A stretch of DNA of 64,000 bases from Clostridia bacterium (lineage in GTDB: Bacteria > Bacillota > Clostridia > UMGS1883), in contig JAZTXM010000003.1 of NCBI GenBank assembly GCA_045636425.1, positions 4,903-68,902 on the forward strand. The letters run 5' to 3'. A model generated the notes under the pieces. That model was not told where the DNA came from and made no database searches. It saw only the letters and a list, made by a program, of their open reading frames with translations. Below, piece after piece: positions 1 to 56,056 of this stretch (positions are counted from its first letter, which is position 1; every line of letters begins with the position of its first letter). The position numbers and the translations under genes are program-made.

Positions 1-429
1 GCTCCCCGTCAGTATGCACTGACGCAGACTCATAAGCACCTTCCCGAGATGACAAAAATAACAGGACTTGAAAACGCTCCCGTATTTTGCCCCATTGTTT
101 CCGATTATTATAGCGGAATGGTTGTAACAGTGCCGATTTTCAAAAGCCAGCTTAATGATGGCTTTACGGCAGAGGACATTAAAAATGCCTATAAAGAAAA
201 GTATACCGGCGGAATTGTTACATACAATGATTCGATTTCCGAATCAGGGCTTATCAGTGCCAATGCACTTTCCTTCAATGATTCCATGCAGATAACAGTT
301 GAGGGAAATGATGAAAGAATTCTTCTTATTGCAAGGTACGATAATTTAGGTAAGGGTGCCTCAGGTGCCGCACTTGAATGTATGAATATTTCAATGGGGG
401 CTTCTCCCGCTGAAATGCTGGATATATGA
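1..429 (+). CDS. argC: N-acetyl-gamma-glutamyl-phosphate reductase, C-terminal part (5' end outside window)
   Basis: Frame 1 is open from base 1 to TGA 427-429. The C-terminal ...ARYDNLGKGASGAALECMNI... is ArgC-like. It is the first gene of an arg cluster. Confidence 0.85.
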   Translation, partial: APRQYALTQTHKHLPEMTKITGLENAPVFCPIVSDYYSGMVVTVPIFKSQLNDGFTAEDIKNAYKEKYTGGIVTYNDSISESGLISANALSFNDSMQITVEGNDERILLIARYDNLGKGASGAALECMNISMGASPAEMLDI

Positions 430-1667
430 AAGGAATGATACATATGTTTAAAATCATAGAGGGCGGCATTTGTGCTCCCAAGGGATTTTCCGCCAACGGT
501 ATTCATTGCGGAATCCGCAAAAACCGCACCAAGCGTGACATTGCACTTATTGTAAGTGATGTTCCTGCGGCAGCTGCGGCAACATATACAACAAATCTCG
601 TAAAGGGTGCTCCCCTTACCGTTACAAAGGACAATATCAAAAACGGTTACGCACAGGCTGTTATCTGTAACAGCGGTAATGCAAACACCTGCAATGCAGA
701 CGGCATTGAAATAGCACTGAAAATGTGCGGTCTTGTTGAAAAACATACCGATGTTAAGGCGGAGGATGTTATTGTAGCGTCAACAGGCGTTATCGGTCAG
801 CCTCTTGACATTACCCCCATATCGGACGGAATGGAGGAGCTTGTAAAGGGTCTTGGTAAAGATGCCGAGCATGCAAATTACACCTCCGAGGCAATTCTTA
901 CAACTGACCTTGTAAAAAAAGAGATTGCCGTAAGCTTCACCCTGGGCGGTAAGGAATGCACCATTGCAGGTATTGCAAAGGGAAGCGGTATGATCCATCC
1001 CAACATGGCCACCATGCTTGTGTTTATTACAACCGATGCCGCCATTTCTCCCAAAATGCTTCAGAGAGCGTTATCGGCAGATATAAAGAAAACCTTTAAT
1101 ATGATAAGCGTTGACGGCGATACATCAACAAATGATATGGTATCGGTTATGGCAAACGGCCTTGCGGGAAATGCTTTAATCGAAGAAGAAAACGAAGACT
1201 TTGAAACCTTTGCAAAAGCACTTAACACTGTTACAATCTACCTTTGCAAAATGATTGCAGGTGACGGTGAGGGTGCAACAAAGATGCTTGAATGCTCTGT
1301 TTCCGGTGCTAAGGATGAAAAATGTGCAAAGACAGTGGCAAAATCCGTTATCTGTTCATCGCTTCTTAAAGCGGCAATGTTCGGTGCCGACGCCAACTGG
1401 GGCAGGGTGCTTTGTGCAATAGGCTACAGCGGTGCAAACGTGGATGTAGATAAGATTGATGTGTCCTTTGCTTCAAAGGAAGGCACAATCAAGGTTTGCG
1501 AAAACGGAGCAGGCGTGAATTTTTCTGAAGAAATTGCAAAGAAAATATTGCTTGAAAAGGAAATTAATATTATAATAGATCTTAAAGACGGTGACGCACA
1601 GGCTACCGCATGGGGCTGTGACCTTACTTACGATTATGTAAAGATCAACGGCGATTATCGTACTTGA
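426..1667 (+). CDS. argJ: bifunctional ornithine acetyltransferase / N-acetylglutamate synthase
   Basis: KGSGMIHPNMATMLVFITTDA carries the ArgJ autoprocessing ATML site. ATGA overlap with argC. The alternative start ATG 444 has AAAGGAA 8 nt upstream. Confidence 0.9.
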   Translation: MKGMIHMFKIIEGGICAPKGFSANGIHCGIRKNRTKRDIALIVSDVPAAAAATYTTNLVKGAPLTVTKDNIKNGYAQAVICNSGNANTCNADGIEIALKMCGLVEKHTDVKAEDVIVASTGVIGQPLDITPISDGMEELVKGLGKDAEHANYTSEAILTTDLVKKEIAVSFTLGGKECTIAGIAKGSGMIHPNMATMLVFITTDAAISPKMLQRALSADIKKTFNMISVDGDTSTNDMVSVMANGLAGNALIEEENEDFETFAKALNTVTIYLCKMIAGDGEGATKMLECSVSGAKDEKCAKTVAKSVICSSLLKAAMFGADANWGRVLCAIGYSGANVDVDKIDVSFASKEGTIKVCENGAGVNFSEEIAKKILLEKEINIIIDLKDGDAQATAWGCDLTYDYVKINGDYRT

Positions 1668-1956: not shown

Positions 1957-2811
1957 ATGACTAACGCACAGCGCGCAGAAGTACTTACCCAGGCACTTCC
2001 TTATATACAAAAATACAACAACAAAATAATCGTTGTGAAATACGGCGGAAACGCTATGATTAACGATGAGCTTAAGGATGCCGTAATGGGTGACATTGTT
2101 CTTTTGTCCCTTATCGGTATTAAGGTTGTTCTCGTTCATGGAGGCGGTCCCGAAATCACACAGATGCTTAAGCAGGTTGGGAAGGAATCCCAGTTTGTTA
2201 ACGGCCTTCGTGTAACAGATAAGGAAACCGTGGATATTGTGCAAATGGTGCTTGCGGGAAAGGTTAATAAAAACCTTGTAAATCTTCTCCACCATAAGGG
2301 TGGCAATGCTATCGGTCTTTGCGGCATTGACGGTCATATGATTGAGGCAGAGGTTCTTAACCCTGAGCTTGGCTATGTCGGAGAAATCACCAAGGTGAAC
2401 GTACAGCCCATCACCGACCTTCTCGAAAAGGGCTACATACCTGTTATTTCCACCGTTGGTTGTGATAAGGATGGCAATGTGTATAACATCAACGCTGATA
2501 CTGCCGCATCCAAAATAGCAGGTATCTTAGGTGCTGAAAGCCTTATTTCCATGACAGACATCGAGGGTATTCTTCGTGATAAGGATGACCCCTCTACTCT
2601 CATTTCCAAAATTTGCGTGGAAGATGCCCCCAAGCTTGTCGAGGAAGGCGTTATCTCAGGCGGCATGATTCCCAAAGTGGAATGTTGTATTGACGCTATC
2701 AAAAGTGGCGTGAGAAAGGTATTTATAATTGACGGCAGAATCCCCCACTCCATACTTATCGAAACCTTGACCAATGAAGGTATCGGTACTATGTTTGTTC
2801 GCGGAGAATAA
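1957..2811 (+). CDS. argB: acetylglutamate kinase
   Basis: 284 aa with IVVKYGGNAM and VLVHGGGPEI amino-acid kinase motifs. GGAGG SD upstream. Arg cluster context. Confidence 0.92.
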   Translation: MTNAQRAEVLTQALPYIQKYNNKIIVVKYGGNAMINDELKDAVMGDIVLLSLIGIKVVLVHGGGPEITQMLKQVGKESQFVNGLRVTDKETVDIVQMVLAGKVNKNLVNLLHHKGGNAIGLCGIDGHMIEAEVLNPELGYVGEITKVNVQPITDLLEKGYIPVISTVGCDKDGNVYNINADTAASKIAGILGAESLISMTDIEGILRDKDDPSTLISKICVEDAPKLVEEGVISGGMIPKVECCIDAIKSGVRKVFIIDGRIPHSILIETLTNEGIGTMFVRGE

Positions 2812-2875: not shown

Positions 2876-4036
2876 ATGAACACATTTGAGAAAGACAAAC
2901 AGTTTGTCGCACCCACATATGGGCGTTTTCCTGTAGAAATTGTCGGTGGAAAGGGTGCTGTTTTAAAGGGTAGCGACGGAAAAGAATATATAGATTTGGG
3001 AAGCGGAATCGCAGTAAACACCTTCGGTTTTCGTGATGATGAATGGGTTAACGCAGTGAAAGCACAGCTTGACTCTTTTGCACACACTTCAAATCTTTAC
3101 TATACCTCCCCCTGTGCTGACCTTGCAAAGATGCTTTGCGAGAAAACTGGAATGAAGAATGTTTTCTATTCAAACTCAGGTGCGGAAGCAAATGAATGTG
3201 CAATCAAAGCCGCTCGCCGCTACGGCTCACTAAATAAGGGCGAGGATTATTATACAATCATTACACTGGAAAAAAGCTTCCACGGCAGAACTCACACAAC
3301 ACTTGCGGCAACAGGTCAGGAAAGCTTTCATAAAGACTTTCTCCCCCTTACCCCCGGTTTTGTGCATACTCCCCCGAATGATACAGAATCTCTTAGAAAA
3401 GCCGTGAAAGATAACAAGTGCTGTGCGATAATGATGGAAATTGTTCAGGGCGAGGGCGGTGTATGTGCCCTTGAAAAGGAATTTATTCTTGAAGCCGAGA
3501 AGCTTTGCCGTGAAAATGACCTTGTACTTATTATAGATGAGGTACAGGCAGGAAACGGCAGAACGGGTAAGCTTTACGCATATATGCACTACGGCATTAC
3601 TCCCGATGTAGTAACCACTGCAAAGGGACTGGGAGGCGGACTTCCCATCGGTGTAACAATGCTCGGAGAAAAGGTAAAGGATATTTTTGCTCCGGGGCTT
3701 AACGGCTCCACTTTTGGAGGAAACCCCGTTTGCTGCAGCGGTGCAATCAGTATTCTCTCAAGACTTACAGATGAGTTTTTGGAGGGAGTAACAGAAAAAG
3801 CTGAAATAATAAGAGAAACCTTAAGCGGAGCCGAAGGAATCGAAGATATTTCGGGACTTGGTCTTATGATAGGTATTAAAACAGTGAAAGAAGCAAAGGA
3901 AGTAGTAAATAAGTGCATCGAAAATGGCGTGCTTGTTCTTACCGCAAAGGATAAGGTAAGGCTTCTTCCCCCGCTTAATATAGATAATAATCTGCTTAGA
4001 AAAGCACTTGAAGTAATTAAGGAGGCATGTAAATAA
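2876..4036 (+). CDS. argD: acetylornithine aminotransferase
   Basis: 386 aa class-III aminotransferase with DEVQAGNGRTG and the PLP lysine in TTAKGLGGG. AAGGAG SD. Confidence 0.9.
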   Translation: MNTFEKDKQFVAPTYGRFPVEIVGGKGAVLKGSDGKEYIDLGSGIAVNTFGFRDDEWVNAVKAQLDSFAHTSNLYYTSPCADLAKMLCEKTGMKNVFYSNSGAEANECAIKAARRYGSLNKGEDYYTIITLEKSFHGRTHTTLAATGQESFHKDFLPLTPGFVHTPPNDTESLRKAVKDNKCCAIMMEIVQGEGGVCALEKEFILEAEKLCRENDLVLIIDEVQAGNGRTGKLYAYMHYGITPDVVTTAKGLGGGLPIGVTMLGEKVKDIFAPGLNGSTFGGNPVCCSGAISILSRLTDEFLEGVTEKAEIIRETLSGAEGIEDISGLGLMIGIKTVKEAKEVVNKCIENGVLVLTAKDKVRLLPPLNIDNNLLRKALEVIKEACK

Positions 4037-4938
4037 TGAAGCATTTATTAAAGCTGGGCGATCTTACAAAGGAAGAGATTGTAGAAATTCTCGACCTTGC
4101 GGATAAGCTTAAATATGAAAAAAGAAACGGAATTGAGCATCACTTGCTCAAGGGAAAGACACTGGGAATGATTTTCCAGAAGTCCTCCACCAGAACAAGA
4201 GTTTCCTTTGAGGTTGGTATGTTTGACCTTGGCGGAAGTGCACTTTTCCTCAGCCCCAGAGATTTGCAGATTGGCAGAGGTGAGGTTGTAGAGGATACTG
4301 CAAGAGTTCTTTCCAGATTCTTAGACGGAATTATGATCCGCACCTTTGAACAAAAAGAGGTTGAAGATTTTGCCTCCTACGGTGATATTCCGATTATTAA
4401 CGGACTTACAGACTACTGCCATCCCTGTCAGGTATTGGCTGACCTTATGACAATCCGTGAAAAGAAAGGAAATCTTGAAGGTCTTAAAATGTGCTTTGTT
4501 GGCGACGGTAATAATATGGCAAACTCCATTATCGTGGGATGCATCAAGATGGGTATGGAGGTTTCCATAGCTTGTCCCAAAGGTTATGAGCCTGACAGCG
4601 ATATTATGAAGTGGGCAAACGAAACAGGAAAGTTTACTTGCACAGAAGATGTAATGGAAGCGGCAAAGGGTGCAGATGCTCTCTATACAGACGTATGGGC
4701 TTCTATGGGACAGGAAGAAGAATTTAACGAAAGAGCAAAGGTATTCAAAAATTACCAGATTAATTCCGAGCTTATGAAGGTTGCAAATGAAGGTGCGATG
4801 GTGCTTCATTGTCTGCCTGCACACCGAGGCGAAGAAATCACGGCGGAGGTAATTGAACAGCATGCCGATGAAATTTTTGAAGAAGCCGAAAACAGACTTC
4901 ACGCACAGAAGGCTGTTATGGTTAAATTAATGGCATAA
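4036..4938 (+). CDS. argF: ornithine carbamoyltransferase
   Basis: 300 aa with the STRTRVSFE, HPCQ, SMG and HCLPAHRGEE motifs. TAATG junction with argD. Confidence 0.92.
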   Translation: MKHLLKLGDLTKEEIVEILDLADKLKYEKRNGIEHHLLKGKTLGMIFQKSSTRTRVSFEVGMFDLGGSALFLSPRDLQIGRGEVVEDTARVLSRFLDGIMIRTFEQKEVEDFASYGDIPIINGLTDYCHPCQVLADLMTIREKKGNLEGLKMCFVGDGNNMANSIIVGCIKMGMEVSIACPKGYEPDSDIMKWANETGKFTCTEDVMEAAKGADALYTDVWASMGQEEEFNERAKVFKNYQINSELMKVANEGAMVLHCLPAHRGEEITAEVIEQHADEIFEEAENRLHAQKAVMVKLMA

Positions 4939-4986: not shown

Positions 4987-6039
4987 ATGAAAGCATATTT
5001 GACTTTGGAAAACGGAAAGGTTTTCTCGGGAGAAGCATTCGGTGCAATATGCGACGAGGTTGGAGAAATAGTATTTTCCACTTCTATGGGCAGTTACATT
5101 GAAGCACTTACAGACCCCTGCTATTACGGACAGATTCTTGTCCAGACATATCCGCTTATCGGTAACTACGGTATGATTTACTCCGATATGGAAAGCAGCA
5201 AGATTCACGCAAAGGGTTACATTGTGCGAGAAATTTGCGATACACCTTCAAACTTCCGCTCGGAGGGACTCTTGGAAGATTTCCTCAAAGAGCAGGGTGT
5301 TATGGGTATTTCGGGAATTGATACACGTGAAATCACAAAAATCATTCGCGAAGAAGGCACTATGACAGCACGCATCTCAACTAAAGAGCCTTCAGGCGAA
5401 AAGCCCCAGATGCCCGACATTAAAAACGCGGTTAAAGAAGTCAGTGCAAAGGAAAAACACACTGTAGGCGATGCAGATGTGAAAATTGCACTTCTCGACC
5501 TGGGAACAACTAAAAGTGCCGTTAAAACACTCGCAAATAAAGGTGCTATGGTAACAGTTCTTCCCTGTGACACAAAAGCGGACGAGTTTCTTTCCTACGA
5601 TGCGATTTATCTTTCCGATGGTCCGGGAAACCCCGAGGACTATAGTGAAATCGTAGAAGTAATAAAAGAAGTATTCGGCAAAAAGCCTATTTTTGCCACG
5701 GGACTTGGTCATCAGCTTCTTGCTATGGCAAACGGTGCAAAAATTCACAAGCTTCCTTATGGTCACCGCGGTGCAAATCAGCCTGTTAAGCAGCTTGAAA
5801 GCGGCAGAGTTTATATCACTGCACAAAACCACAGCTATGCAGTAGTTTCCGATACTCTCCCCTCTTACGCACAGGTAACTTATGAAAACCTTAACGACAA
5901 GAGCTGTGAGGGTATTGAGTACAAAGACAAAAATGCTGTTTCAATTCAATTCCGTCCCATAGAGGGAGACGGTCCTAACGAAACAGACTTCTTATACAGA
6001 AAATTCTTTGAAATGATTGGAGGAAGCAAGAATGCCTAA
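4987..6039 (+). CDS. carA: carbamoyl-phosphate synthase small-subunit homolog lacking the glutaminase catalytic triad
   Basis: 350 aa. The CarA N-domain (LTDPCYYGQILVQTYPLIGNYG) and GATase fold are retained. The nucleophile motif reads FATGLGHQ instead of FGICLGHQ, and HPE reads RPI. Overlaps carB by 8 nt. Confidence 0.85.
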   Translation: MKAYLTLENGKVFSGEAFGAICDEVGEIVFSTSMGSYIEALTDPCYYGQILVQTYPLIGNYGMIYSDMESSKIHAKGYIVREICDTPSNFRSEGLLEDFLKEQGVMGISGIDTREITKIIREEGTMTARISTKEPSGEKPQMPDIKNAVKEVSAKEKHTVGDADVKIALLDLGTTKSAVKTLANKGAMVTVLPCDTKADEFLSYDAIYLSDGPGNPEDYSEIVEVIKEVFGKKPIFATGLGHQLLAMANGAKIHKLPYGHRGANQPVKQLESGRVYITAQNHSYAVVSDTLPSYAQVTYENLNDKSCEGIEYKDKNAVSIQFRPIEGDGPNETDFLYRKFFEMIGGSKNA

Positions 6040-9000
6040 GAATAAAGACATCAAAAAGGTACTGGTAATCGGCTCGGGTCCTATTGTAATCGGGCAGGCT
6101 GCCGAATTTGACTATGCAGGTGCACAGGCTTGCCGAGTACTCCGCGATGAGGGCGTAAATATCGTCCTTGTAAACTCCAACCCCGCTACAATTATGACAG
6201 ATAAGGCTCTTGCAGATGAAATTTATCTTGAACCTCTTACAACAGATACAATCAAGAGAATCATTGAAAAGGAAAAGCCCGACAGTCTTCTTGCATCGCT
6301 TGGCGGACAGACAGGTCTTACCATTGCAATGCAGCTTGATAAGGAAGGCTATCTTGACAAAATGGGCGTTAAGCTTATCGGCACAAATGCCGAAGCTATC
6401 GACCGTGCAGAGGATAGAGAGCTTTTCAAGGAAACGATGCTCAAAATCGGGCAGGGTTGTATCCCCTCCGACATCGCTACAACAGTTGACGAATGTCTTA
6501 GCATTGCAGAAAAAATTGGCTACCCCGTAATTGTACGCCCTGCATTCACCCTTGGCGGTGCAGGTGGCGGCGTTGCGTATGACGCTGATACTCTTGCAAA
6601 GATTGCAAATAATGGTCTTACTCTTTCCCCCATTACTCAGGTGCTTATTGAAAAGTACATCTACGGATGGAAAGAAGTAGAATTTGAAGTTATGCGTGAC
6701 CACGCCGGTAACGCTATTACAATCTGTAGCATGGAAAATGTGGATCCCGTTGGCATCCACACCGGTGACAGTATAGTTGTTGCTCCCGCGGCAACTCTTT
6801 CCGATAAAGAATATTCAATGCTCAGAAAAGCGGCTCTTGATATTATCACAGAGCTTAAGATTGAGGGCGGATGTAACTGTCAGTTTGCACTTAATCCCGA
6901 CAGCTTTGAGTATGCGGTAATCGAGGTTAACCCCAGAGTTTCCCGTTCTTCCGCACTTGCAAGTAAGGCTACGGGTTACCCCATTGCAAAGGTTACCACA
7001 AAGATTGCCCTCGGCTATACGCTTGATGAAATCAAAAATGATGTTACTGGTGTAACATATGCTTGCTTTGAGCCTGCGGTTGACTACATGGTAGTTAAAT
7101 TCCCCAAATGGCCCTTTGACAAATTCGTATATGCCGACAGAAAGCTCGGCACACAGATGAAGGCTACGGGCGAGGTTATGTCTATCGGCAATTCCTTTGA
7201 ATCGGCACTTATGAAGGCGGTAAGAGGTGCAGAGCTTAAGACCGAAACTCTCCGCCATAAGGAAGTTCAAGCTATCGAGGATATTGAAAAGAAGCTTTAT
7301 GACCTTGACGACCTTAGAATTTTCACAGTTTATGAAGCTCTTGTAAGAGGAATTACTGTAGACAGAATCAACGAAATCACAAGAATTGATAAATGGTTCC
7401 TTTCCAAGATTAAAAATATTGTGGACTATGAAAAGAGCATTGTGGGCAATCTTACTCCCGAGCTTTACGAAAAAGGTAAGAAGCTTGGCTTTACCGATAA
7501 GATTCTGGAAGAAATCAGCGGTGAAAAAGTTCCCTGCCATAAAAATTGCGTTTACAAAATGGTTGATACCTGTGGCGGCGAATTTGCAGCTAAAACTCCC
7601 TACTTCTACTCCACTTATGACAATGAGTGCGAAGCAAGGGCCGTTGCTACAAACAACAAAAAGGTAATCGTTCTCGGCTCCGGTCCTATCAGAATCGGTC
7701 AGGGTATCGAATTTGACTACTCCTCCGTTCACTGTGTATGGGCACTTAAGGAAATGGGCTACGAGGTAATTATTATTAATAACAACCCCGAAACCGTTTC
7801 CACCGACTTTGATACAGCGGACAGGCTTTATTTTGAGCCTCTTACTCCCGAAGATGTAATGAACGTAATCGAGGTTGAAAAGCCCGAGGGCGTTGTGGTT
7901 GCATTCGGCGGTCAGACTGCAATCAAGCTGGTTAAATTCCTTGACGAAAGCGGAATTAAAATCTTAGGTACTTCTGCAAAGAGCATTGATATGGCAGAGG
8001 ATCGTGAGCAGTTTGATGCACTCCTTGAAAAGTTCAACATTAAGCGTCCCAGCGGTCTTACCGTTATGACACGCACTGAAGCACTCGAGGCGGCAGAAAA
8101 GCTTGGCTACCCCGTACTTCTGCGTCCCTCATACGTAATCGGCGGTCAGAATATGACGATTGCTTACAAGGAAGAAGACGTAGAACGCTATATGGATATC
8201 ATTCTTTCTCAGAAGATTGAAAACCCTGTACTTGTGGATAAGTATATGATGGGTAAGGAGCTTGAGGTTGACGTAATCAGCGACGGCAAAGACGTTCTTA
8301 TCCCCGGTATTATGGAGCACGTTGAACGTGCAGGTGTACACAGCGGTGACTCTATCGCAGTATATCCTCCCTTTAACGTGACGGATAAGATGCTTGATAA
8401 GATTGTTGACTGCTCAATAAAGCTTGCTCTTTCCCTTAAGACACAGGGACTTATAAATATTCAGTACCTTGTATATGAAAACGAACTGTATGTAATCGAG
8501 GTTAACCCCAGAGCATCAAGAACAGTTCCCTATATCAGTAAGGTAACGGGCATTCCTATGGTAGACCTTGCTACACAGGTTATGCAGGGTACTCCCCTTC
8601 TTGACCTTGGCTACGGCAGCGGTCTTTACAAGATGCCCCCCTACTATGCAGTTAAGGTTCCTGTGTTCTCATTTGAGAAGCTTTCGGGTATCAACTCTAT
8701 CTTAGGACCTGAAATGAAGTCCACAGGTGAAGTTTTGGGTATTGGTAAAACGCTTAACGAGGCACTTTACAAAGGTCTTGTTTCCGCAGGCTTCAATCTT
8801 GAAAGCCGTGGCGGAGTATATATCAGCGTTGACTCAAAGGATAAGTACGACCTTATTGAGCTTGCAAAGAAGCTTTACGATGCAGGTCTTGAAATCTACG
8901 CAGATGAAATGAATGCTCTCATTATAGATTCATTGGGTATCCCCGTGGAAACAGTTGAGGGAGAAAAGATTTATTCACTCCTTGAAAGCGAAAAGATTGG

Positions 9001-10036
9001 TTATATAATTCACACCAATTCAGGCAGACCTAAGGAAATTGAGAAGTTTATAAGACTGCACCGCAGAGCACTTCAGTTAAGCATTGCATGTCTTACATCG
9101 CTTGATACTGCAAATGCACTTGCAGATATTCTTCTCAGCCGATTCAATCAGTATAATACAGAGCTTACGGATATTGCTAAGCTCCGCACAGAAAAGCTGA
9201 ACATTCCCTTTATCAAAATGCAGGGAACCGGCGATGACTATATATTCATCAATAACTTTGATGGAAACATTGCATTCCCCGAAGCACTTGCAATTGTATT
9301 CTCCGACCGCCGCAGAGGTATCGGTGCAGACGGACTTGTTCTTATCGAAAAATCCGATGTGGCAGATGCGAAAATGCGTATATTCAACACTGACGGCAGT
9401 GAGGGCAAAATGGCAGGTAACGCTATCCGTTGCGTAGGTAAATACCTTTGGGATAACGGCTATGTAACACACCGCCATATAGCAATTGAAACTGCAAGCG
9501 GTATAAGAAAGCTTACGCTTCACCTCTTCGACCACAAGGTTACAAGCGTAACCGTCCAGATGGGACAGGCACAGTTTAATCCCGCTCAGATTCCCGTGGA
9601 TATGCCCGGAGATAAAGTAATTAACGAAAAGGTTACAATCGGCGGTAAGAAGTACGATATTACGTGCGTATCTATCGGAAATCCCCACTGTGTTGTTATC
9701 TGCGATAATGTATATAACATTGATGTGGAAACAATCGGTCCGAGGTTTGAAAATGCACCTATATTCCCCGAAAGAATCAATACGGAATTTGTTAAGATTA
9801 TCGACAAGCGTACCATCAGAATGAGAGTATGGGAACGCGGTAACGGTGAAACTCCCGCCTGCGGTACAGGTGCTTGTGCGGCGGCTATTGCGGCAGTTGA
9901 AAACGGCTACTGTGAGAAGGACACCGACATTTCCGTAAGAGTTGAGGGCGGAGAGCTTATCGTACGCTATACAGACGAGGGAGTATTCTTAACCGGTGAT
10001 GCGGAGAAGGTATTTGAGGGAATTTATCAGTATTAA
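6032..10036 (+). CDS. carB: carbamoyl-phosphate synthase large subunit fused in frame to a C-terminal DapF-like (diaminopimelate epimerase fold) domain
   Basis: Start ATG 6032 has GGAGG 9 nt upstream. About 1040 aa of CarB (two ATP-grasp halves plus an MGS-like domain), then a linker. From nt 9197 a DapF-like domain follows (KMQGTGDDYIFIN ... GNPHCVV ... ERGNGETPACGTGACAAA). No stop or SD lies between the two parts. Confidence 0.88.
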   Translation: MPKNKDIKKVLVIGSGPIVIGQAAEFDYAGAQACRVLRDEGVNIVLVNSNPATIMTDKALADEIYLEPLTTDTIKRIIEKEKPDSLLASLGGQTGLTIAMQLDKEGYLDKMGVKLIGTNAEAIDRAEDRELFKETMLKIGQGCIPSDIATTVDECLSIAEKIGYPVIVRPAFTLGGAGGGVAYDADTLAKIANNGLTLSPITQVLIEKYIYGWKEVEFEVMRDHAGNAITICSMENVDPVGIHTGDSIVVAPAATLSDKEYSMLRKAALDIITELKIEGGCNCQFALNPDSFEYAVIEVNPRVSRSSALASKATGYPIAKVTTKIALGYTLDEIKNDVTGVTYACFEPAVDYMVVKFPKWPFDKFVYADRKLGTQMKATGEVMSIGNSFESALMKAVRGAELKTETLRHKEVQAIEDIEKKLYDLDDLRIFTVYEALVRGITVDRINEITRIDKWFLSKIKNIVDYEKSIVGNLTPELYEKGKKLGFTDKILEEISGEKVPCHKNCVYKMVDTCGGEFAAKTPYFYSTYDNECEARAVATNNKKVIVLGSGPIRIGQGIEFDYSSVHCVWALKEMGYEVIIINNNPETVSTDFDTADRLYFEPLTPEDVMNVIEVEKPEGVVVAFGGQTAIKLVKFLDESGIKILGTSAKSIDMAEDREQFDALLEKFNIKRPSGLTVMTRTEALEAAEKLGYPVLLRPSYVIGGQNMTIAYKEEDVERYMDIILSQKIENPVLVDKYMMGKELEVDVISDGKDVLIPGIMEHVERAGVHSGDSIAVYPPFNVTDKMLDKIVDCSIKLALSLKTQGLINIQYLVYENELYVIEVNPRASRTVPYISKVTGIPMVDLATQVMQGTPLLDLGYGSGLYKMPPYYAVKVPVFSFEKLSGINSILGPEMKSTGEVLGIGKTLNEALYKGLVSAGFNLESRGGVYISVDSKDKYDLIELAKKLYDAGLEIYADEMNALIIDSLGIPVETVEGEKIYSLLESEKIGYIIHTNSGRPKEIEKFIRLHRRALQLSIACLTSLDTANALADILLSRFNQYNTELTDIAKLRTEKLNIPFIKMQGTGDDYIFINNFDGNIAFPEALAIVFSDRRRGIGADGLVLIEKSDVADAKMRIFNTDGSEGKMAGNAIRCVGKYLWDNGYVTHRHIAIETASGIRKLTLHLFDHKVTSVTVQMGQAQFNPAQIPVDMPGDKVINEKVTIGGKKYDITCVSIGNPHCVVICDNVYNIDVETIGPRFENAPIFPERINTEFVKIIDKRTIRMRVWERGNGETPACGTGACAAAIAAVENGYCEKDTDISVRVEGGELIVRYTDEGVFLTGDAEKVFEGIYQY

Positions 10037-10395: not shown

Positions 10396-10437
10396 GTTTT
10401 CATTGAAAGAATGAAAAGAAAAAAGGAGATTTTAAAA

Positions 10438-11658
10438 ATGGATAAGAAGGATATTAAAAAAGTAGTTCTCGCTTACAGCGGAGGACTTGACACATCAATC
10501 ATTATTCCGTGGCTTAAGGAAAACTACAACAACTGTGAGGTTATCGCCGTTGCAGGTAATGTAGGACAGAATGACGAGCTTGAAGGTCTTGAAGAAAAGG
10601 CTATAAAGACAGGGGCTTCCAAGCTTTACGTTCTTGACCTTACAGAGGAATATGTAGATGAATACATCATCCCCACTATGAAAGCAGGTGCAATTTACGA
10701 GGAATATCTTCTCGGAACAAGCCATGCTCGTCCCTGTATTGCAAAGGGTCTTGTAGATATTGCAATCAAGGAAAATGCAGATGCTATCTGCCATGGTTGC
10801 ACAGGTAAGGGTAACGACCAGGTGCGTTTTGAGCTTACAATAAAGCACTTTGCTCCTAATATGCCCATTATTGCCCCCTGGCGTATTTGGGATATTAAAT
10901 CCCGTGAAGAGGAAATTGAATATGCAGAGGCACACAATGTTCCTCTTAAGATTAACCGCGAAACAAACTACTCAAAGGATAAGAACCTCTGGCATCTTTC
11001 TCACGAGGGTCTTGACCTTGAAGATACAGGCAACGAGCCTCAGTACGAAAAGCCGGGCTTCCTTGAAATGGGCGTATCTCCCATCATGGCACCCGATGAG
11101 CCTACATATATCACTCTTGACTTTGAGCAGGGCATTCCTGTAGCATTCAATGACAAGAAGATGAGTGCAAAGGAAATCATTCTTGCCCTTAATGAAGTTG
11201 GCGGAAAGAATGGTATCGGACTTCTCGACATCGTTGAAAATCGTCTTGTAGGTATGAAATGCCGCGGCGTTTACGAAACTCCCGGCGGTGCAATCCTTTA
11301 CAAGGCACACAGCGTTCTTGAATCCATCTGCCTTGACAAGATGACACTTCACGAAAAGCAGAAGCTTTCTATCACATTTGCAGAGCTTGTTTATAACGGT
11401 CAGTGGTTTACTCCTCTCCGTGAGGCTCTCAGTGCATTTGTTGATAAGACTCAGGAAAAGGTTACAGGTAAGGTACGCCTTAAGCTTTACAAGGGTAATA
11501 TGATTAATGCAGGCGTATGGAGCGATTACAGCCTTTATTCAGAAGAAATCGCAACCTTTGGCGAAAGCGATTACAACCAGAAGGATTCCGAAGGCTTCAT
11601 TAACCTTTACGGTCTTCCCATTGCAGTACAGGCTATGGTTGATGCAAAGAATAAATAA
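10438..11658 (+). CDS. argG: argininosuccinate synthase
   Basis: [10 protein letters not shown]-type ATP-PPase motif. Start ATG 10438 has AAGGAG 8 nt upstream. The ORF-track start at 10411 lacks an SD. Confidence 0.92.
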
Positions 11659-11659
11659 C

Positions 11660-11900
11660 GGACGTATTAAAATAGCACTGAACGCATAAAGCATGAAGGC
11701 TCATATCATGGCAATTAGAAAGCGTAGATATTTGAGTTTAATCCCGTTTGTCGGGAAAAAATTCGCTCCACGAATTTTATTGACTTATCTGCTTTATGCT
11801 ACGAACAAACTTCACCTCTCGCTGTATACACATACAGCTTCGGGTAACCCACGGCAAGCCGTGGTTCAGTTTGTCCGTTCCGCACTATTTTACTACATCC
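11660..11900 (+). repeat. structured interspersed element, copy 3 (diverged arms)
   Basis: Arms GGACGTATTAAAATAGCACTGAAC / GTTCCGCACTATTTTACTACATCC still pair. Inner helix 11684-11693/11790-11799. The 3' domain is conserved. Begins 1 nt after the argG stop. Confidence 0.8.
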
Positions 11901-11904
11901 TCAC

Positions 11905-11951
11905 AAAAAAGTATGAAACTGTAGTAAAGAAATTTACTACAGTTTCATACT
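11905..11951 (-). terminator. 19-bp perfect hairpin; intrinsic-terminator-like only when read on the minus strand
   Basis: AGTATGAAACTGTAGTAAA-GAAA-TTTACTACAGTTTCATACT (11910-11951). An A-run lies at 11905-11910 on the + strand, which is a U-run after the stem on the - strand. No T-run follows on the + strand. Confidence 0.4.
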
Positions 11952-11974
11952 TAACAGACAATGGAGGTAAAAAT

Positions 11975-13345
11975 ATGGACAAGATGTGGGCAGGGCGTTT
12001 TTCAAAAGCCCTGGATAAAGAAGCTGATGATTTTAATTCATCCATACATTTTGACTGCAAAATGTACAGGCAGGATATAGAGGGCTCTATTGCCCATGCG
12101 ACTATGCTTGCCGAATGTAACATTATTTCCAAAAGCGACAGTGAAACAATAATTGCAGGACTTAAAGAAATTCTTGCTGACCTTGAGGGCGGAGCACTCG
12201 GCTTTGACTTTGATGCGGAAGATATACATATGTTTGTGGAGGCCGAGCTTACACGCCGTATTGGAGATGTGGGAAAAAGGCTTCATACCGCAAGAAGCCG
12301 TAACGACCAGGTGGCCTTAGATATCCGCCTTTACATGCGTGACGAGGCAAATGAGGTTATTTCCCTTATCCGGAAGCTTCTTGGTGCTATTCTTCTTCAG
12401 GCAGAAGCTAACAAGGAAACAATTCTCCCCGGCTACACGCATCTTCAGCGTGCACAGCCCATTATGTTTGCACATCATCTTTGTGCATATGCAATGATGT
12501 TTATCCGCGATATCGGAAGAATCGAGGACGCACTTAAGAGAATGAACCTCTCCCCCTTAGGCTCATGTGCCCTTGCGGGAACAACCTATGAAACAAACCG
12601 CGAAAGGACGGCAGAGCTTCTTGGCTTTGACGGAATTACCTTAAACAGCATCGACGGCGTTTCCGACCGTGACTTCTGCGTTGAGCTGATGAGTGCATTC
12701 GCACTTGTGATGACGCATCTTTCAAGATTCTCCGAGGAGGTTATTCTCTGGTCATCATGGGAATTCAAATTCGTGGAGCTTGACGATTCCTATACAACAG
12801 GCTCCTCCATTATGCCCCAGAAGAAGAATCCCGATATGGCAGAGCTTGTACGCGGTAAGACGGGCAGAGTATATGGCGATTTGATTGCAATGCTGACAAT
12901 ACTAAAGGGTATTCCCCTGGCATACAACAAGGATATGCAGGAGGATAAGGAAGCAATCTTTGACAGCGTGGAAACAGTTAAAAAGTGCCTCAGCATTTTT
13001 GCTCCCATGATTGCTACCATGTCTGTGCGTGCGGACAAAATGTACGCCGCAGCAGGTGAAGGCTTTATCAATGCCACAGACCTTGCCGACTATCTTGTAA
13101 AGAAAGGGCAGCCCTTCCGCAGTGCGTATAAGACAGTAGGGCAGATTGTGGGAAAGTGCGTCGCGGAAAAGAAAACTCTTGAAACGCTTACCCTCCCCGA
13201 ATATAAGGAATTTGATGAGCTTTTTGAGGAAGATTTATATGCAGAAATCGACCTTAAAAACTGCGTGGAAAAACGTATTTCCGCAGGTGGAACTTCTGTA
13301 GCATCAATTAATACACAGATTGAATATATAAAAAAATTTGTATAA
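11975..13345 (+). CDS. argH: argininosuccinate lyase
   Basis: MDKMWAGRFSK... is a typical ArgH N-terminus. GGAGGT SD at 11963-11968. 456 aa. The ORF-track start at 11693 reads through repeat copy 3. Confidence 0.92.
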   Translation: MDKMWAGRFSKALDKEADDFNSSIHFDCKMYRQDIEGSIAHATMLAECNIISKSDSETIIAGLKEILADLEGGALGFDFDAEDIHMFVEAELTRRIGDVGKRLHTARSRNDQVALDIRLYMRDEANEVISLIRKLLGAILLQAEANKETILPGYTHLQRAQPIMFAHHLCAYAMMFIRDIGRIEDALKRMNLSPLGSCALAGTTYETNRERTAELLGFDGITLNSIDGVSDRDFCVELMSAFALVMTHLSRFSEEVILWSSWEFKFVELDDSYTTGSSIMPQKKNPDMAELVRGKTGRVYGDLIAMLTILKGIPLAYNKDMQEDKEAIFDSVETVKKCLSIFAPMIATMSVRADKMYAAAGEGFINATDLADYLVKKGQPFRSAYKTVGQIVGKCVAEKKTLETLTLPEYKEFDELFEEDLYAEIDLKNCVEKRISAGGTSVASINTQIEYIKKFV

Positions 13346-26678: not shown

Positions 26679-27482
26679 TTATTTACTTTTTCCGTACAAA
26701 ATGATATATGCCAAAGAGAATCCGCACAGCACTATTCCCGACACGCCGTATACTACGGCACTTTTTAAAGACATACTAATCTGCGGAATAATTACCGACA
26801 GATTAAATGCACCGTGAAACAGCGTTGCCGTTTTTAAACTGCGGGTTTTATAATAAATTATTCCCAGCAAAATACCTACGCCAAATGTAAATATTGATTG
26901 AAATAGCACCATATGTGCCGCCGCAAAGAATGCCGCCTGAATTATAATTGCAAACCACGGACGAAAGCTTTTCATAAGCTCTCCCATGAAAAGGCCGCGG
27001 AACAATATCTCCTCAAAAAACGGCATTAAGACAATTATTGCAAAAAGAGCAACTGCAATCTGACCGAGCGTATGAAACTCGGGCACTGCCTCCCCTGCTG
27101 CCTCAATCGATTCTTTCAGGGGCTGAATTTTTTGAGCATAGGAATAAAAAACCGAAACCAATAGCCTTGCACCTATTGCCATGCATACCGCCATTATATT
27201 AACAATAGGGACAACCTTTTCATTTTTTATAATGGTATGTATAGGTGCTTTCCTGAGCTTCCCTATAAGGCTGAATACAAATATTGAAAATATGGCACTG
27301 ATACTGCTTAATGCATATGTATAATCAACCATATCGGTATAAGCTTCTGCTATCGATTTATTCAATATCTTTCTTTGCCAAAAAAGAAACACAAGCTGCA
27401 CACCCATACCGATAAGGTAATATAAAACAACGTATAATGCCCCTTGAAAAAGGGCTTTTAACCTCTTTTTTCGGACGGTCAT
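26679..27482 (-). CDS. CPBP-family intramembrane glutamic endopeptidase (CAAX protease-like)
   Basis: Multi-TM protein with the EEILFRG and HGAFN motifs. 4-nt overlap with rnfB. Confidence 0.8.
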   Translation of the reverse strand: MTVRKKRLKALFQGALYVVLYYLIGMGVQLVFLFWQRKILNKSIAEAYTDMVDYTYALSSISAIFSIFVFSLIGKLRKAPIHTIIKNEKVVPIVNIMAVCMAIGARLLVSVFYSYAQKIQPLKESIEAAGEAVPEFHTLGQIAVALFAIIVLMPFFEEILFRGLFMGELMKSFRPWFAIIIQAAFFAAAHMVLFQSIFTFGVGILLGIIYYKTRSLKTATLFHGAFNLSVIIPQISMSLKSAVVYGVSGIVLCGFSLAYIILYGKSK

Positions 27483-28288
27483 CGTGCATCATCCTTGTTG
27501 ATTGAAACAATTATTTTTTTGGGGCATTTGCTTTCACATAATCCGCAATTTATACATACGGACTGATCTATTTGTGCACAATTGTTTTCAACTTTTATTG
27601 CACCCACAGGACAGTTTTTCTCACAAATTTTGCAACCGATACATCCTACAGAGCACTTTCCCTTCATTTCTGCACCTTTATCGCAGGAGTGGCATTTTAC
27701 GATGTACTTCACCTTTTTGGGTACTATGGAAATGAGATTTTTAGGGCAGGCTGCCGCACATTCGCCGCATCCTCCGCACTTTTCCATATCTACTACGGCA
27801 ATTCCGTTTTCGATTCTTATGGCATTGTTCTGACACACCTTTGCACAAGAACCATAGCCAAGGCATCCGTATGTGCATGCTTTGGCACCTGCACCCTGAA
27901 GTCTTGAAGCTGTTACGCAATCCTCAATTCCCACATATTCGTACTTATCTAAAGCGTTGTCGAAGGTACCGTTACAGATAACTACAGCACACTTTTCCTC
28001 CACCGCTTCACCTGATACGCCCATAATCTCAGCAATGGCATCGGCAACGCTCTGTCCACCGGGGCTACAGCAATTAATCTTTGCCTCGCCTTTTGATATT
28101 GCACCGGCATAGGCACTGCATCCGGCATATCCGCAGCTTCCGCAGTTTGCTCCGGGAAGAACAGAGGTAATTTCTTCGGCTCTTTCATCCTTTTCCACTG
28201 CGAATATTTTAGACGCCAATGCAAGAAGCAGGCCGAGTACAAGTCCGACAGCTCCCATTGCGAGTGCCGGTAATAATATTTCTTTCAT
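27479..28288 (-). CDS. rnfB: Rnf electron-transport complex subunit B
   Basis: N-terminal TM helix, a CGSCGYAGC cluster and several CxxCxxCxxxCP ferredoxin motifs. Confidence 0.9.
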   Translation of the reverse strand: MKEILLPALAMGAVGLVLGLLLALASKIFAVEKDERAEEITSVLPGANCGSCGYAGCSAYAGAISKGEAKINCCSPGGQSVADAIAEIMGVSGEAVEEKCAVVICNGTFDNALDKYEYVGIEDCVTASRLQGAGAKACTYGCLGYGSCAKVCQNNAIRIENGIAVVDMEKCGGCGECAAACPKNLISIVPKKVKYIVKCHSCDKGAEMKGKCSVGCIGCKICEKNCPVGAIKVENNCAQIDQSVCINCGLCESKCPKKIIVSINKDDAR

Positions 28289-28306
28289 TTTTCAAACCTT
28301 CCTTCC

Positions 28307-28909
28307 TCAGAATGACATGCCCTGAAATCCCATAAACGCAATTGCAAGGAGCGATGCACTTATAAGTGCAATCGGAAAGCCCGTGAGTGCTTTGGGAATA
28401 TCTGAGCTTTCAAGACGTTCTCTTACACCTGCAAAGAGGACTATTGCCAAAAGGAAGCCAAGACCTGCACTAAATCCGTTTACAACCGATTCAATCAGAG
28501 TATATGTTCCCACAGGGTTAATTACGGAAGCCGTGCGCACATTAAGAAGTGCAACACCGAGCACCGCACAGTTTGTAGTGATGAGCGGAAGGTATATACC
28601 CAAGGCACTGTACAGTGACGGGATTGACTTTTGCAAAAACATCTCAACAAACTGAACCAACGCTGCAATAATTACGATAAAAGCAATCGTCTGCATATAT
28701 TCCATGTCCAAAGGAACAAGAATAAACTTCTGACAAGCCCATGTAAGCATTGAGGCAAGCGTCATTACAAAGGTTACTGCCATACCCATTCCGAGTGCCG
28801 TATCAAGCTTTTTTGAAACACCCAGGAACGGACAAATTCCGTAAAACTTAACCAATACAAAGTTCTGTACAAATATAGAGGTTAATGCAATTCCTATTAA
28901 TGCTGTCAT
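28307..28909 (-). CDS. rnfA: Rnf complex subunit A
   Basis: 200-aa polytopic membrane protein with a typical RnfA N-terminus (FVQNFVL) and operon position. Confidence 0.88.
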   Translation of the reverse strand: MTALIGIALTSIFVQNFVLVKFYGICPFLGVSKKLDTALGMGMAVTFVMTLASMLTWACQKFILVPLDMEYMQTIAFIVIIAALVQFVEMFLQKSIPSLYSALGIYLPLITTNCAVLGVALLNVRTASVINPVGTYTLIESVVNGFSAGLGFLLAIVLFAGVRERLESSDIPKALTGFPIALISASLLAIAFMGFQGMSF

Positions 28910-29497
28910 TTATCTCTGCTCCTTTCTGTTTCTTATTGCATTTATAATTCCTAAAATAATACCAAGCGTTAAGAAGCCTCCCGGGGGAAGTATCATTACG
29001 GTAGCAGGATTTGCTATTCCCACGCTCACGCCTAAAATAGTGCCGTTACCGAGTATTTCACGCACTGCGGAAATAAGTGAGAGGGCAACGGTAAATCCAA
29101 GTCCCATTCCAAGGCCATCTGCCGCAGACTTTAAAACCGTGTTTTTCGAAGCAAATGCCTCTGCACGGGCAAGAATAATACAGTTTACAACTATCAGTGG
29201 GATAAAGAGTCCCAAGGACGCAGAAAGGCTTGGAACATACGCCTTAAGCACAAGGTCTACCACTGTTACAAAGGTAGCAATAATAACAACATATGCCGCA
29301 ATACGAATTTTCGAAGGTATGATTTTTCTCAGCATGGATATGAGCATATTGGAAAGAATCAGAACAAAGGTTACGGAAAGTCCCATACCGATACCATTTA
29401 CAAAAGATGTTGTTACCGCAAGTGTGGGACACATACCCAAAACCTGTACAAACGTAGGGTTTTCGTTTATAAGTCCGTTTTTAATTGTTTTCAGCAC
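28910..29497 (-). CDS. rnfE: Rnf complex subunit E
   Basis: NPTFVQVLGMCP RnfE motif. I prefer GTG 29497, which lies 9 nt after AAGGAGG, over the ORF-track start at 29569. Confidence 0.85.
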   Translation of the reverse strand: MLKTIKNGLINENPTFVQVLGMCPTLAVTTSFVNGIGMGLSVTFVLILSNMLISMLRKIIPSKIRIAAYVVIIATFVTVVDLVLKAYVPSLSASLGLFIPLIVVNCIILARAEAFASKNTVLKSAADGLGMGLGFTVALSLISAVREILGNGTILGVSVGIANPATVMILPPGGFLTLGIILGIINAIRNRKEQR

Positions 29498-30041
29498 TTT
29501 TCTTTTCCTCCTTATCCATAGCTTCCACAAGCATATTAAATGCTTCATCAACGCCCGAGGCAACGGCACGGCTGGTTATAGTCGCACCTGTAATCGCTGT
29601 AATCTGATCGGGGCTCTCTGTCTTTGTTTTTACAACCTCAAGCGTGGAATTTTTTTTGGAAAACTGGTTCTTGAATTCCGGCTCGGTAGCTTTTGCACCC
29701 AAGCCTGCAGTTTCACTGTGACTTAAAATTTCAATTCCGCAAACCTGTGCATCACTATCTATTGCCACCATCATTTCAATAGCTCCACCATATCCGCTTG
29801 TGGTTACATTAACGCAAAATCCTACGGGGTTTTGGTCTTTCATTCCCTTGAAGACATTATCATTCATCTGCTCAAAGCTATCTGCCTGAGGAAGTATTGC
29901 TTTCATTGCATCCTGAATTGCTTTTTCTTCTGCCGCTGCAATTTTAGGCTTTGTTATATGGTTTACACCTGCAAGAAGCATTGCGGCAACAAGGGTGATT
30001 GCACAAAGAATCCCCGAAAGCTTTATAAATTCCTTTTTCAT
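29481..30041 (-). CDS. rnfG: Rnf complex subunit G (FMN-binding)
   Basis: N-terminal TM helix and the ITGATITSRAV FMN-attachment motif. Confidence 0.88.
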   Translation of the reverse strand: MKKEFIKLSGILCAITLVAAMLLAGVNHITKPKIAAAEEKAIQDAMKAILPQADSFEQMNDNVFKGMKDQNPVGFCVNVTTSGYGGAIEMMVAIDSDAQVCGIEILSHSETAGLGAKATEPEFKNQFSKKNSTLEVVKTKTESPDQITAITGATITSRAVASGVDEAFNMLVEAMDKEEKKSAENN

Positions 30042-30050
30042 ACTCGCACC

Positions 30051-40784: not shown

Positions 40785-40853
40785 TTTCTACACCTCTATA
40801 TGTATATTTTTAATTATAAATTCAACACCTATTATTTACTGCTTATTATGTAT

Positions 40854-41033
40854 CCCCGCAGTGCCGTTTATTTCGGACTATTCTAAACCTGCCAAAGCAG
40901 GTGGGTGACTCGCTCACCGCTCCTGGGTTTCCCTCTGGCATAGCAAGGGCTTACACGCCACGGCAAGACATTCGGTCTCCCTATATAGATGTGTTGGTTA
41001 AAATAAATCCGTAATTGCGCACACCGCAGGGGG
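40854..41033 (-). ncRNA. candidate structured 5' leader / cis-regulatory RNA of the SLH gene (class unknown)
   Basis: On the minus strand the closing helix is CCCC..GCGGUG / CACUGC-GGGG. A second long-range helix GGAUUUAUUUUAACC / GGUUUAGAAUAGUCC and internal hairpins follow. It lies between a promoter and the SD. Confidence 0.4.
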
Positions 41034-41048
41034 ATTGCTCATGTTTTA

Positions 41049-56051: not shown

Positions 56052-56056
56052 AATTA

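Follow-up and report, generated by a model that had tools for sequence, protein, structure and literature searches.

Introduction

The carbamoyl phosphate synthetases (CPS) of bacteria are regarded as glutamine-driven enzymes: according to Liu et al. 2021 (PMC8121099), every eubacterial CPS so far characterised depends on glutamine, and the 2015 paper on the structure of human CPS1 names that enzyme as the only CPS type which does not use glutamine (PMC4655335). In human CPS1 the catalytic triad of the glutaminase-like domain is incomplete, only its Cys being reported as lost, and the enzyme takes up external ammonia (PMC4655335). Here we describe the carA gene found in the arginine cluster of a 64,000-nucleotide stretch (hereafter the window) of contig JAZTXM010000003.1 of a Clostridia bacterium. 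In its product, CarA*, all three residues of the glutaminase triad are replaced, the gene is under purifying selection, and the enzyme formed with its partner CarB is probably an ammonia-dependent CPS.

In CPS1 (PDB 5dot/5dou), as in the window, a complete glutaminase-like domain is kept without the nucleophile; CPS1 works with free ammonia, and its product goes to ornithine carbamoyltransferase. There are also differences. CPS1 is one fused polypeptide, depends on N-acetylglutamate and has the Cys alone replaced (by Ser), whereas the small subunit of the window is the product of a separate gene, has three triad residues replaced and accompanies a large subunit with a C-terminal DapF-like domain; moreover, the loss of the window type is independent and repeated, and belongs to bacteria. 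With respect to the marks of a CPS of type I, the vestigial domain without nucleophile is thus present and the single fused polypeptide is absent. The analogy with CPS I, drawn in a preliminary description of this DNA, holds in kind, and the present case goes further, three triad residues being gone compared with only the Cys in CPS1.

Another parallel is offered by the orphan CarB2 of Bacteroides thetaiotaomicron (BT3866), for which Liu et al. 2021 (PMC8121099) proposed the role of an ammonium-dependent CPS; beyond it, no bacterial CPS proposed to depend on ammonia was found in the literature searched. As in the window, the host is a gut anaerobe, and the proposal is that the enzyme does without glutamine where ammonium abounds. 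CarB2 is without any small subunit, however, while the window keeps a dead one, with purifying selection acting on its gene, which overlaps carB; the host of CarB2 belongs to Bacteroidota and that of the window to Bacillota, and ammonia dependence is a proposal in both cases. The archaeal ammonia-dependent routes, a carbamate-kinase-like enzyme of Pyrococcus and a minimal CPS of Methanobrevibacter smithii, are, as far as they are cited in PMC8121099, alike in being prokaryotic and ammonia-dependent, one of them from a gut organism, but they have other architectures without a CarA-like subunit and, where the small subunit is concerned, are not homologous to the window system.

In gene order and presumed role the locus corresponds to the canonical arginine CarAB of Firmicutes (e.g. 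argCJBD-carAB-argF of Bacillus subtilis). Four orthologous loci of our collection (L087, L089, L092 and L095) share its syntenic position and its fusion of CarB with a DapF-like domain (CarB::DapF), but differ by keeping Ser47, Cys269, His353 and Glu355 (E. coli CarA numbering, used for the triad positions throughout). The fused domain resembles DapF (PDB 2otn, 1bwz/2gke) in its full-length profile match, its second catalytic Cys and its distal-site residues; it differs in the first catalytic Cys, which is Ala, in Asn11, which is Asp, and in being fused to CarB. The full-text literature searched contained no account of bacterial CarAs without the triad, nor of CarB fused to DapF.

Results

Loss of the glutaminase triad in CarA*

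Full-length profile matches, a predicted two-domain fold and the coupling to carB identify the product of the window gene as a member of the CarA family. The PF00988 match covers positions 1-126 of the 126 of the profile (E 1e-49), PF00117 is matched with an E value of 1.2e-33, and the scores against NF009475 (401 bits) and TIGR01368 (377 bits) exceed the curated cut-offs of 221 and 307, respectively. When the protein was compared with the E. coli CarA chains of the PDB by phmmer, PIFATGLGHQLLA was paired with PVFGICLGHQLLA and SIQFRPIEGDGP with SFQGHPEASPGP, both without a gap. A MAFFT alignment of the window CarA and 120 homologues resulted in the same triad columns. In these columns Cys269 is replaced by Gly239, His353 by Arg323 and Glu355 by Ile325 (Table 1).

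Other active-site positions, absent from the list of the preliminary description, are changed as well (Ser47 to Cys45, Asn240 to Asp211, Asp244 to Asn215, Gly313 to Ser283 and Phe314 to Tyr284). Ser47 of E. coli is the oxyanion-hole serine of the glutamine site, and is reported to lie beside the scissile carbonyl in the structures of Thoden and Raushel (e.g. 1cs0). Both the triad and Ser47, which characterise the small subunit of a glutamine-hydrolysing CPS (EC 6.3.5.5), are therefore absent from CarA*.

The preliminary description had claimed the loss of the whole triad (Cys to Gly, His to Arg, Glu to Ile), and the columns obtained by both methods agree with this. The codons that it had read at the three sites, the 8-nt overlap with carB (carB ATG at 6032, carA TAA at 6037-6039) and the intact N-terminal CarB-docking domain were likewise found as it had given them. 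The profiles of Pfam and TIGRFAM, which it had proposed as a check, were matched. An alternative Cys/His/Glu triad elsewhere in the protein, which in its view would have refuted the claim, was not placed by any of the alignments. Its remark that none of the three changes is a single-base slip was mistaken: CGT (Arg) is one transition from CAT (His), and Cys to Gly takes one non-synonymous step (TGT to GGT), so that only Glu to Ile needs at least two changes. This error leaves the conclusion untouched, because the substituted states are fixed across many species.

The CarB partner

The two genes are separate open reading frames (ORFs) overlapping by 8 nt (6032-6039), an arrangement which is kept in the relatives, and a GGAGGA ribosome-binding site (6019-6024) lies ahead of the carB ATG; carA is still translationally coupled to carB. 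The whole carB ORF (6032-10036, forward strand) encodes a protein of 1334 amino acids, a CarB with a complete DapF-like domain at its C-terminus. The CarB core scores 1454 bits against NF003671 and 1425 bits against TIGR01369, while its MGS-like domain reaches only 20.7 bits, under the cut-off. Comparison with E. coli CarB showed that the residues of the ammonia gate, Cys232, Ala251 and Ala314, are kept, together with Glu217, Glu219, His243, Asn301, Arg303 and Arg306, among which are residues of the carboxyphosphate site. The gate of the ammonia tunnel of CarB has been described (PMC8674909).

Seventeen CarB columns are invariant in the five sequences with a canonical CarA partner, yet changed in at least three of the clades with a CarA lacking the intact triad (dead CarA). 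Five of these 17 lie within residues 231-266, around the gate residues Cys232 and Ala251 (V231I, F237V/I, D258N/T, Q262S/N and S266K/Q/N/G/T), and position 266 is changed in 8 of the 8 dead clades. For this interval, which was picked post hoc, the clustering has a hypergeometric p of about 0.002. The positions 258, 262 and 266 are spaced as i, i+4 and i+8, as for one face of a helix.

Dead CarAs in related genomes

Relatives were collected as 79 species-level loci, obtained from four encoding-contig look-ups and one scan of GTDB species genomes; the latter used the DPCYYGQI motif and is thus skewed toward Cys47. The hosts are metagenome-assembled genomes (MAGs) of uncultured Clostridia, Oscillospiraceae or Acutalibacteraceae, which came from the gut of goat, sheep, cattle, buffalo, roe deer, water deer and human.

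A survey of orthologues, another check put forward in the preliminary description, found no intact triad in any of the 67 nearest clusters at 90% identity or of the 79 species loci. The 67 clusters, 62-95% identical to the window CarA, carry Gly at position 269, with Arg or Ala at 353 and one of Ile, Val, Cys and Thr at 355; CarAs with the canonical Cys/His/Glu first appear at 58% identity or below. An intact triad was present in none of the 79 loci, and Cys269 was absent from 78 of them, being replaced mostly by Gly, by Ser in three and by Ala in one. The exception, L040, keeps Cys269 and has His353 changed to Asn, while L034 has lost the Cys and kept His and Glu, and these two loci represent intermediate states. 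An exhaustive HMMER search covered 1.84 billion cluster representatives; among the best 150 (50% clustering), about 105 lacked Cys269 and 44 were canonical.

Position 47 is Ser in all canonical relatives and is replaced throughout the neighbourhood of the query, usually by Cys, in part of the query clade by Ala. Among the dead representatives of the 50% clusters, a sample not biased by the motif, A, C, S, T, N, G, R, V, I and L all occur there, and T, C, S, N, V, G and A in the dead clade of Acutalibacteraceae. Positions 353 (R/A/E/I/T/N/S/Q) and 355 (I/V/C/T/D/S/N/A) are also highly variable among the dead lineages, as expected of positions which are no longer catalytic.

The carA ORF is intact in most species-level genomes, and argF lies directly upstream of it in 80 of 91 loci. 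CarB::DapF (1334-1369 amino acids) occurs wherever the full gene is visible, except in L041 and L083. In these two loci (L041, 6274-10576; L083, 7323-11648) a dead CarA, with Ala/Glu/Glu and Gly/Arg/Val in place of the triad, respectively, stands with an unfused CarB in a pyrC-pyrF-carA-carB-pyrK-pyrD operon, and loss of the glutaminase is thus not confined to the arginine-specific CPS. The preliminary description had presented the protein as a CarA of the arginine cluster, which is right for the window locus but too narrow for the group, with its members in pyrimidine operons.

A sub-clade of 38 dead CarAs (Acutalibacteraceae-type loci, e.g. L046-L080) has a deletion of the loop that corresponds to residues 357-362 of E. 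coli CarA, Gly359 included. Pro358-Gly359-Pro360 of E. coli presumably forms part of the wall of the ammonia tunnel. The E. coli G359F mutation, as it is cited in PMC4655335 (PDB 1m6v), blocks the tunnel for ammonia derived from glutamine and not for external ammonia.

Two loci, L079 (8688-9770) and L084 (9922-11021), have carA split into two overlapping ORFs beside an intact carB::dapF. This may be a true pseudogenisation of the dead subunit and thereby a step toward an orphan CarB, or else an error of MAG assembly.

Selection and predicted fold

The dN/dS values (non-synonymous to synonymous substitution rates) of carA are 0.06-0.16 overall, and 0.06-0.09 against three close relatives, where dS is unsaturated (about 0.4). 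Within the gene the N-terminal domain is the more constrained, with 0.02-0.05 against close relatives, and the glutamine amidotransferase (GATase)-like domain gives 0.07-0.10 in unsaturated pairs; carB has about 0.02 and the fused DapF-like domain 0.02-0.06, with 0.02-0.05 against the three close relatives. The window carA is thus under purifying selection and is not decaying.

The constraint is not as strict as in canonical enzymes. In pairs of the window lineage the ratio of the dN of carA to the dN of carB is 3.3-5.9, whereas it is 1.4-1.5 in canonical pairs of the same lineage, for which distant pairs were used since the close ones are too alike (dS 0.01-0.06). This difference indicates that the constraint on the dead CarA is partly released. 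In one relative CarA is 73% identical while CarB is 95% identical. In comparisons of the window with L012, L013, L015 and L085, synonymous sites of carA have diverged about twice as far (dS about 1.6) as those of the adjoining carB (dS about 0.8); recombination or homogenisation of carB, a constraint on codon usage or a saturation artefact are possible causes.

The AlphaFold model of the window CarA, built from an alignment of 58 sequences, predicts the CarA fold with high confidence (predicted local distance difference test, pLDDT, 92.5; predicted template modelling score, pTM, 0.92). Foldseek superposes the model on the E. coli CarA chains with TM (template modelling) scores of 0.91-0.94; with the N-terminal moiety of human CPS1 the score is 0.91. 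Gly241, Gly243, Leu270, His272, Gln273, Asn311, His312 and Tyr314 are near-invariant in the dead CarAs. The intact ORF, the low dN/dS, the predicted fold and the conserved substitutions all bear out the earlier view that the gene is not decaying but encodes a pseudo-amidotransferase which is being maintained.

Repeated loss of the triad

The canonical-triad CarAs which occupy the same arginine-cluster position next to a CarB::DapF are those of L087 (P0069), L089/L095 (P0089/P0109) and L092 (P0423, from human gut). Trees were distance-based, calculated by neighbour-joining, that of CarB from a core of 1,030 columns. In the CarB tree L087 is sister to the query clade and the dead L006 and L032 lie outside, both nodes having 100% bootstrap, and L092 groups with the dead Acutalibacteraceae clade, also with 100% bootstrap. 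Since the canonical loci are nested among dead ones, the simplest reading of these sequences is that the triad was lost at least three times independently at one orthologous locus, and on the same reading further losses would have occurred in L034/L035, L007, L037, L039/L086 and L041/L083.

A single loss event was also considered. The CarB tree favours several losses over it, and the resolution of the CarA tree is too low for a choice between the two. A less likely alternative is that recombination replaced carA in the canonical lineages.

The DapF-like domain of CarB

The domain fused to CarB matches PDB 2otn with an E value of 2e-70 and, in its profile, is clearly that of a DapF (Table 1), but of the two catalytic cysteines (C73 and C217 in the numbering of H. 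influenzae, used here for DapF residues) only the second is present. Residues aligned to N64, N157, N190, E208, R209 and C217 of the solved DapFs are retained. The one-Cys state of the motif was found in about 57 of 60 fused domains, whereas stand-alone DapFs retain both Cys and Asn. The fused domain is, judged by these residues, probably not an epimerase.

The CarB::DapF fusion is kept in more than 55 related loci, including the canonical-CarA lineages L087, L089, L090 and L092, and in L087, L089 and L092 a canonical CarA accompanies the same C73A/N11D fusion. As the one-Cys state is shared with arginine loci of canonical CarA, it arose before, and independently of, the loss of the triad. We also considered the DapF-like domain as a replacement source of ammonia, the acquisition of which would have caused the triad loss; this was rejected, because canonical CarAs carry the same C73A/N11D fusion. 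The role of the domain may lie in ligand sensing or in oligomerisation, which is a guess.

A different setting of the fusion was seen in L090 (1-14724; also in L091 and L094), where canonical carA-carB::dapF-pyrG belongs to a nitrogen-assimilation cluster with glutamine synthetase type III, glutamate synthase, glnA and an ANTAR regulator. The species is a very common one of the gut, its protein being present in 693 collection blocks, and the fused DapF domain of L090 keeps both Cys and Asn. In B. thetaiotaomicron carAB and dapLF share a locus of high-affinity ammonium assimilation and matter only at low ammonium (PMC8121099). The L090 cluster resembles this locus, and by analogy the resemblance may hint at the origin of the CarB-DapF fusion.

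The arginine cluster and the rest of the window

The order of the cluster is argC-argJ-argB-argD-argF-carA-carB-argG-argH, and the upstream order is the same in relatives. The argH ORF is longer than its orthologues: the ArgH profile and the orthologues of 456 amino acids begin at about residue 95 (MDKMWAGRF), and the upstream 94 codons are probably untranslated. Rfam and tRNA scans of the window detected no regulatory RNA near the arginine cluster. At the other end of the window (55317-56587, reverse strand) a NadE of 253 amino acids is encoded, in which only the NAD_synthase domain and no fused glutaminase domain was detected; it adjoins an isochorismatase-family (nicotinamidase-like) gene.

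Table 1. Positions of the genes, domains and single sites of the window
Feature	Position	Strand	Remarks
argC (partial)	1-429	+	
argJ	426-1667	+	
argB	1957-2811	+	
argD	2876-4036	+	
argF	4036-4938	+	ornithine carbamoyltransferase
carA*	4987-6039	+	CPS small subunit, 350 amino acids, dead glutaminase site; intact ORF
N-terminal CPSase_sm_chain domain of CarA*, residues 5-130	4999-5376	+	PF00988, CarB-docking; better conserved half of CarA
Cys45, codon TGC	5119-5121	+	position of E. coli Ser47
class-I GATase-like domain of CarA*, residues 169-342	5491-6012	+	PF00117, without Cys-His-Glu triad
Gly239, codon GGA	5701-5703	+	replaces the nucleophile Cys269 (phmmer, MAFFT, codon reading)
Arg323-Pro324-Ile325, CGT CCC ATA	5953-5961	+	replaces His353-Pro354-Glu355; CGT 5953-5955, ATA 5959-5961
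carB core, residues 1-1034 of the 1334	6032-9133	+	both ATP-grasp halves, oligomerisation and allosteric domains
CarB residues 231-266	6722-6829	+	around the gate residues; Ile231, Val237, Ser262 and Lys266 in the window
DapF-like domain, residues 1059-1332 of the carB product	9206-10027	+	PF01678; TIGR00652 276 bits (cut-off 115)
Asp1068, N11 position	9233-9235	+	GxGND motif changed
Ala1128 (GCA), C73 position	9413-9415	+	MAGNA in place of MCGNG
Cys1277, C217 position	9860-9862	+	second catalytic Cys (ACGTG), kept
argG	10411-11658	+	
argH ORF	11693-13345	+	550 amino acids from the first ATG; likely true start near 11975
Rnf electron-transport gene cluster	27479-32376	-	Fe-S/ferredoxin subunit, two Rnf-Nqr membrane subunits, RnfD-family, RnfC-like
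6S (SsrS) RNA	40849-41035	-	Rfam RF00013, 89 bits, full-length

Discussion

Cys269 and His353 have established roles in the thioester mechanism of the class-I amidotransferases (PMC6245113). Since the nucleophile, the general base and the orienting acid are all missing, CarA* should be unable to form the gamma-glutamyl thioester, and glutaminase activity would consequently be absent. We consider it probable that CarA* is a pseudo-glutaminase which serves as a structural subunit, and that the enzyme is a CPS which depends on ammonia and has converged on vertebrate CPS I. In the model suggested, the holoenzyme of CarA* and CarB::DapF would make carbamoyl phosphate from bicarbonate, two ATP and free NH3, and the product would pass to the ornithine carbamoyltransferase encoded next door by argF. 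CarA* would have been kept because CarB needs a structural or allosteric partner, possibly also as the vestibule of the ammonia path. The driver of the change was probably life in the ammonia-rich and energy-limited gut, where skipping glutamine would save one ATP of glutamine synthetase per nitrogen; once ammonia was sufficient, the glutaminase site would have been released from selection, and this would have happened several times at the locus.

Several earlier observations are in line with this model. E. coli CPS with a blocked or perforated tunnel is inactive with glutamine and normal with external ammonia (PMC4655335). Bacterial CarB, purified by itself, has been reported to work as a CPS dependent on ammonium (Trotta et al. 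1971, cited in PMC8121099). All the hosts stem from the gut, which fits plentiful ammonia and scarce ATP. As for the short NadE of the window, its domain content suggests that it is ammonia-dependent, and this would be consistent with an economy based on amidation by ammonia, but such short forms are common in bacteria.

Other points weigh against the model. E. coli CPS uses ammonia with a poor Km, and the window enzyme has no sequence feature which demonstrates an improved affinity for NH3. The residues of the glutamine pocket are mostly strictly kept in the dead CarAs, beyond the obvious needs of a purely structural role, and the DapF-like domain is left without a role in the explanation. 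The case is built on sequences and a model, every host being uncultured. Within the 64-kb window there is no other carB-sized gene and no pyr gene; this check for a second, canonical CPS covers the window only, which limits what can be claimed about physiological importance. Two canonical CarAs that were found, P0100 and P0109, trace to other assemblies (CAQALA01 and CAYXLH01).

The kept pocket has led us to consider that it is still of use, as a ligand sensor. The dead pocket of CarA*, perhaps together with the DapF-like domain, could bind glutamine or another amino acid and tune an ammonia-using CarB, so that arginine synthesis would be coupled to the nitrogen status. Both accessory domains keep binding residues and have lost catalytic ones, both are under strong purifying selection, and the changes of CarB 231-266 near the gate recur in the partners of dead CarAs. 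The conservation of the residues may, however, be structural only (nucleophile elbow, beta-strand packing), and the 38 dead CarAs with the deleted loop do not fit well with a preserved binding site. Ligand binding is hypothetical, and a sensor would extend the pseudo-glutaminase explanation instead of excluding it. Altogether we hold a sensor to be unlikely. The same low expectation applies to the fuller version, in which an ammonia-dependent CarB would be tuned by two enzyme-derived pseudo-domains serving as allosteric sensors, the dead glutaminase pocket still binding glutamine, and the triad loss, with its matching CarB 231-266 changes, was adaptive as opposed to neutral decay. The C73A/N11D pocket of the DapF-like domain may in that case suit a cationic ligand of the size of diaminopimelate, such as arginine, ornithine or citrulline.

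Another possibility is that CarA* is a glutaminase after all, by means of a relocated apparatus with Cys45 as migrated nucleophile, aided by His282 (His312 of E. coli) or Arg323. Cys45 sits where all canonical CarAs have Ser, at a position that presumably lies beside the scissile carbonyl in E. coli CPS. Every CarA found by the DPCYYGQI motif lacks an intact triad and, except L040 with its Asn in place of His353, lacks Cys269; the pocket residues Gly241, Gly243, Gln273, Asn311 and His312 are near-invariant. On the other hand, position 47 is unconserved in the dead CarAs sampled without the motif and is Ala in part of the query clade, the alignment contains no conserved general base to replace His353, and the oxyanion-hole position would be ill placed for nucleophilic attack. 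Since position 47 varies in the unbiased samples, residual glutaminase activity is held unlikely, and a relocated nucleophile in CarA* appears very unlikely to us.

Also very unlikely is a paralogue that has become redundant or is in decay, contributing little or about to be lost, beside a second, canonical glutamine-dependent CPS which supplies the carbamoyl phosphate: some Firmicutes do have two CPSs (PMC8121099), carA is split in L079 and L084 beside an intact carB, and CarA evolves faster than CarB, but dN/dS is far under 1 in carA and lower still in carB and the fused domain, the ORF and its translational coupling are kept across most species-level genomes, dead CarAs occur in pyrimidine operons as well, and the context is that of a complete arginine cluster with argF adjoining in most loci.

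The pseudo-glutaminase explanation, with NH3 as the most likely substrate, would bring to light an ammonia-using CPS with a dead CarA, a type almost undocumented in bacteria. Textbooks and the recent primary literature describe bacterial CPSs as glutamine-dependent, and the dead-triad CarAs address this gap. They make up a large and previously unremarked group of bacterial CarAs, more than 100 of the nearest 150 representatives at 50% identity, which by their residues cannot be glutaminases and are yet maintained, and the triad loss seems to have arisen several times in gut Clostridia. Automated annotation ignores the state of the triad and labels dead CarAs as "glutamine-hydrolyzing"; P0369, for example, has Thr47, Gly269, Glu353 and Thr355, and yet bears this name for the small subunit at NCBI. 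Such labels lead to a wrong nitrogen donor in metabolic models of gut and rumen MAGs. The finding should be of interest for specialists in amidotransferases and in the nitrogen metabolism of gut microbes. If the enzyme is indeed ammonia-dependent, it would provide a heterodimeric counterpart of CPS I from bacteria, easily expressed and mutated, and a natural experiment on those roles of the small subunit which are other than glutamine hydrolysis; it would also let the economy of nitrogen and ATP be seen shaping amidotransferases in ammonia-rich guts.

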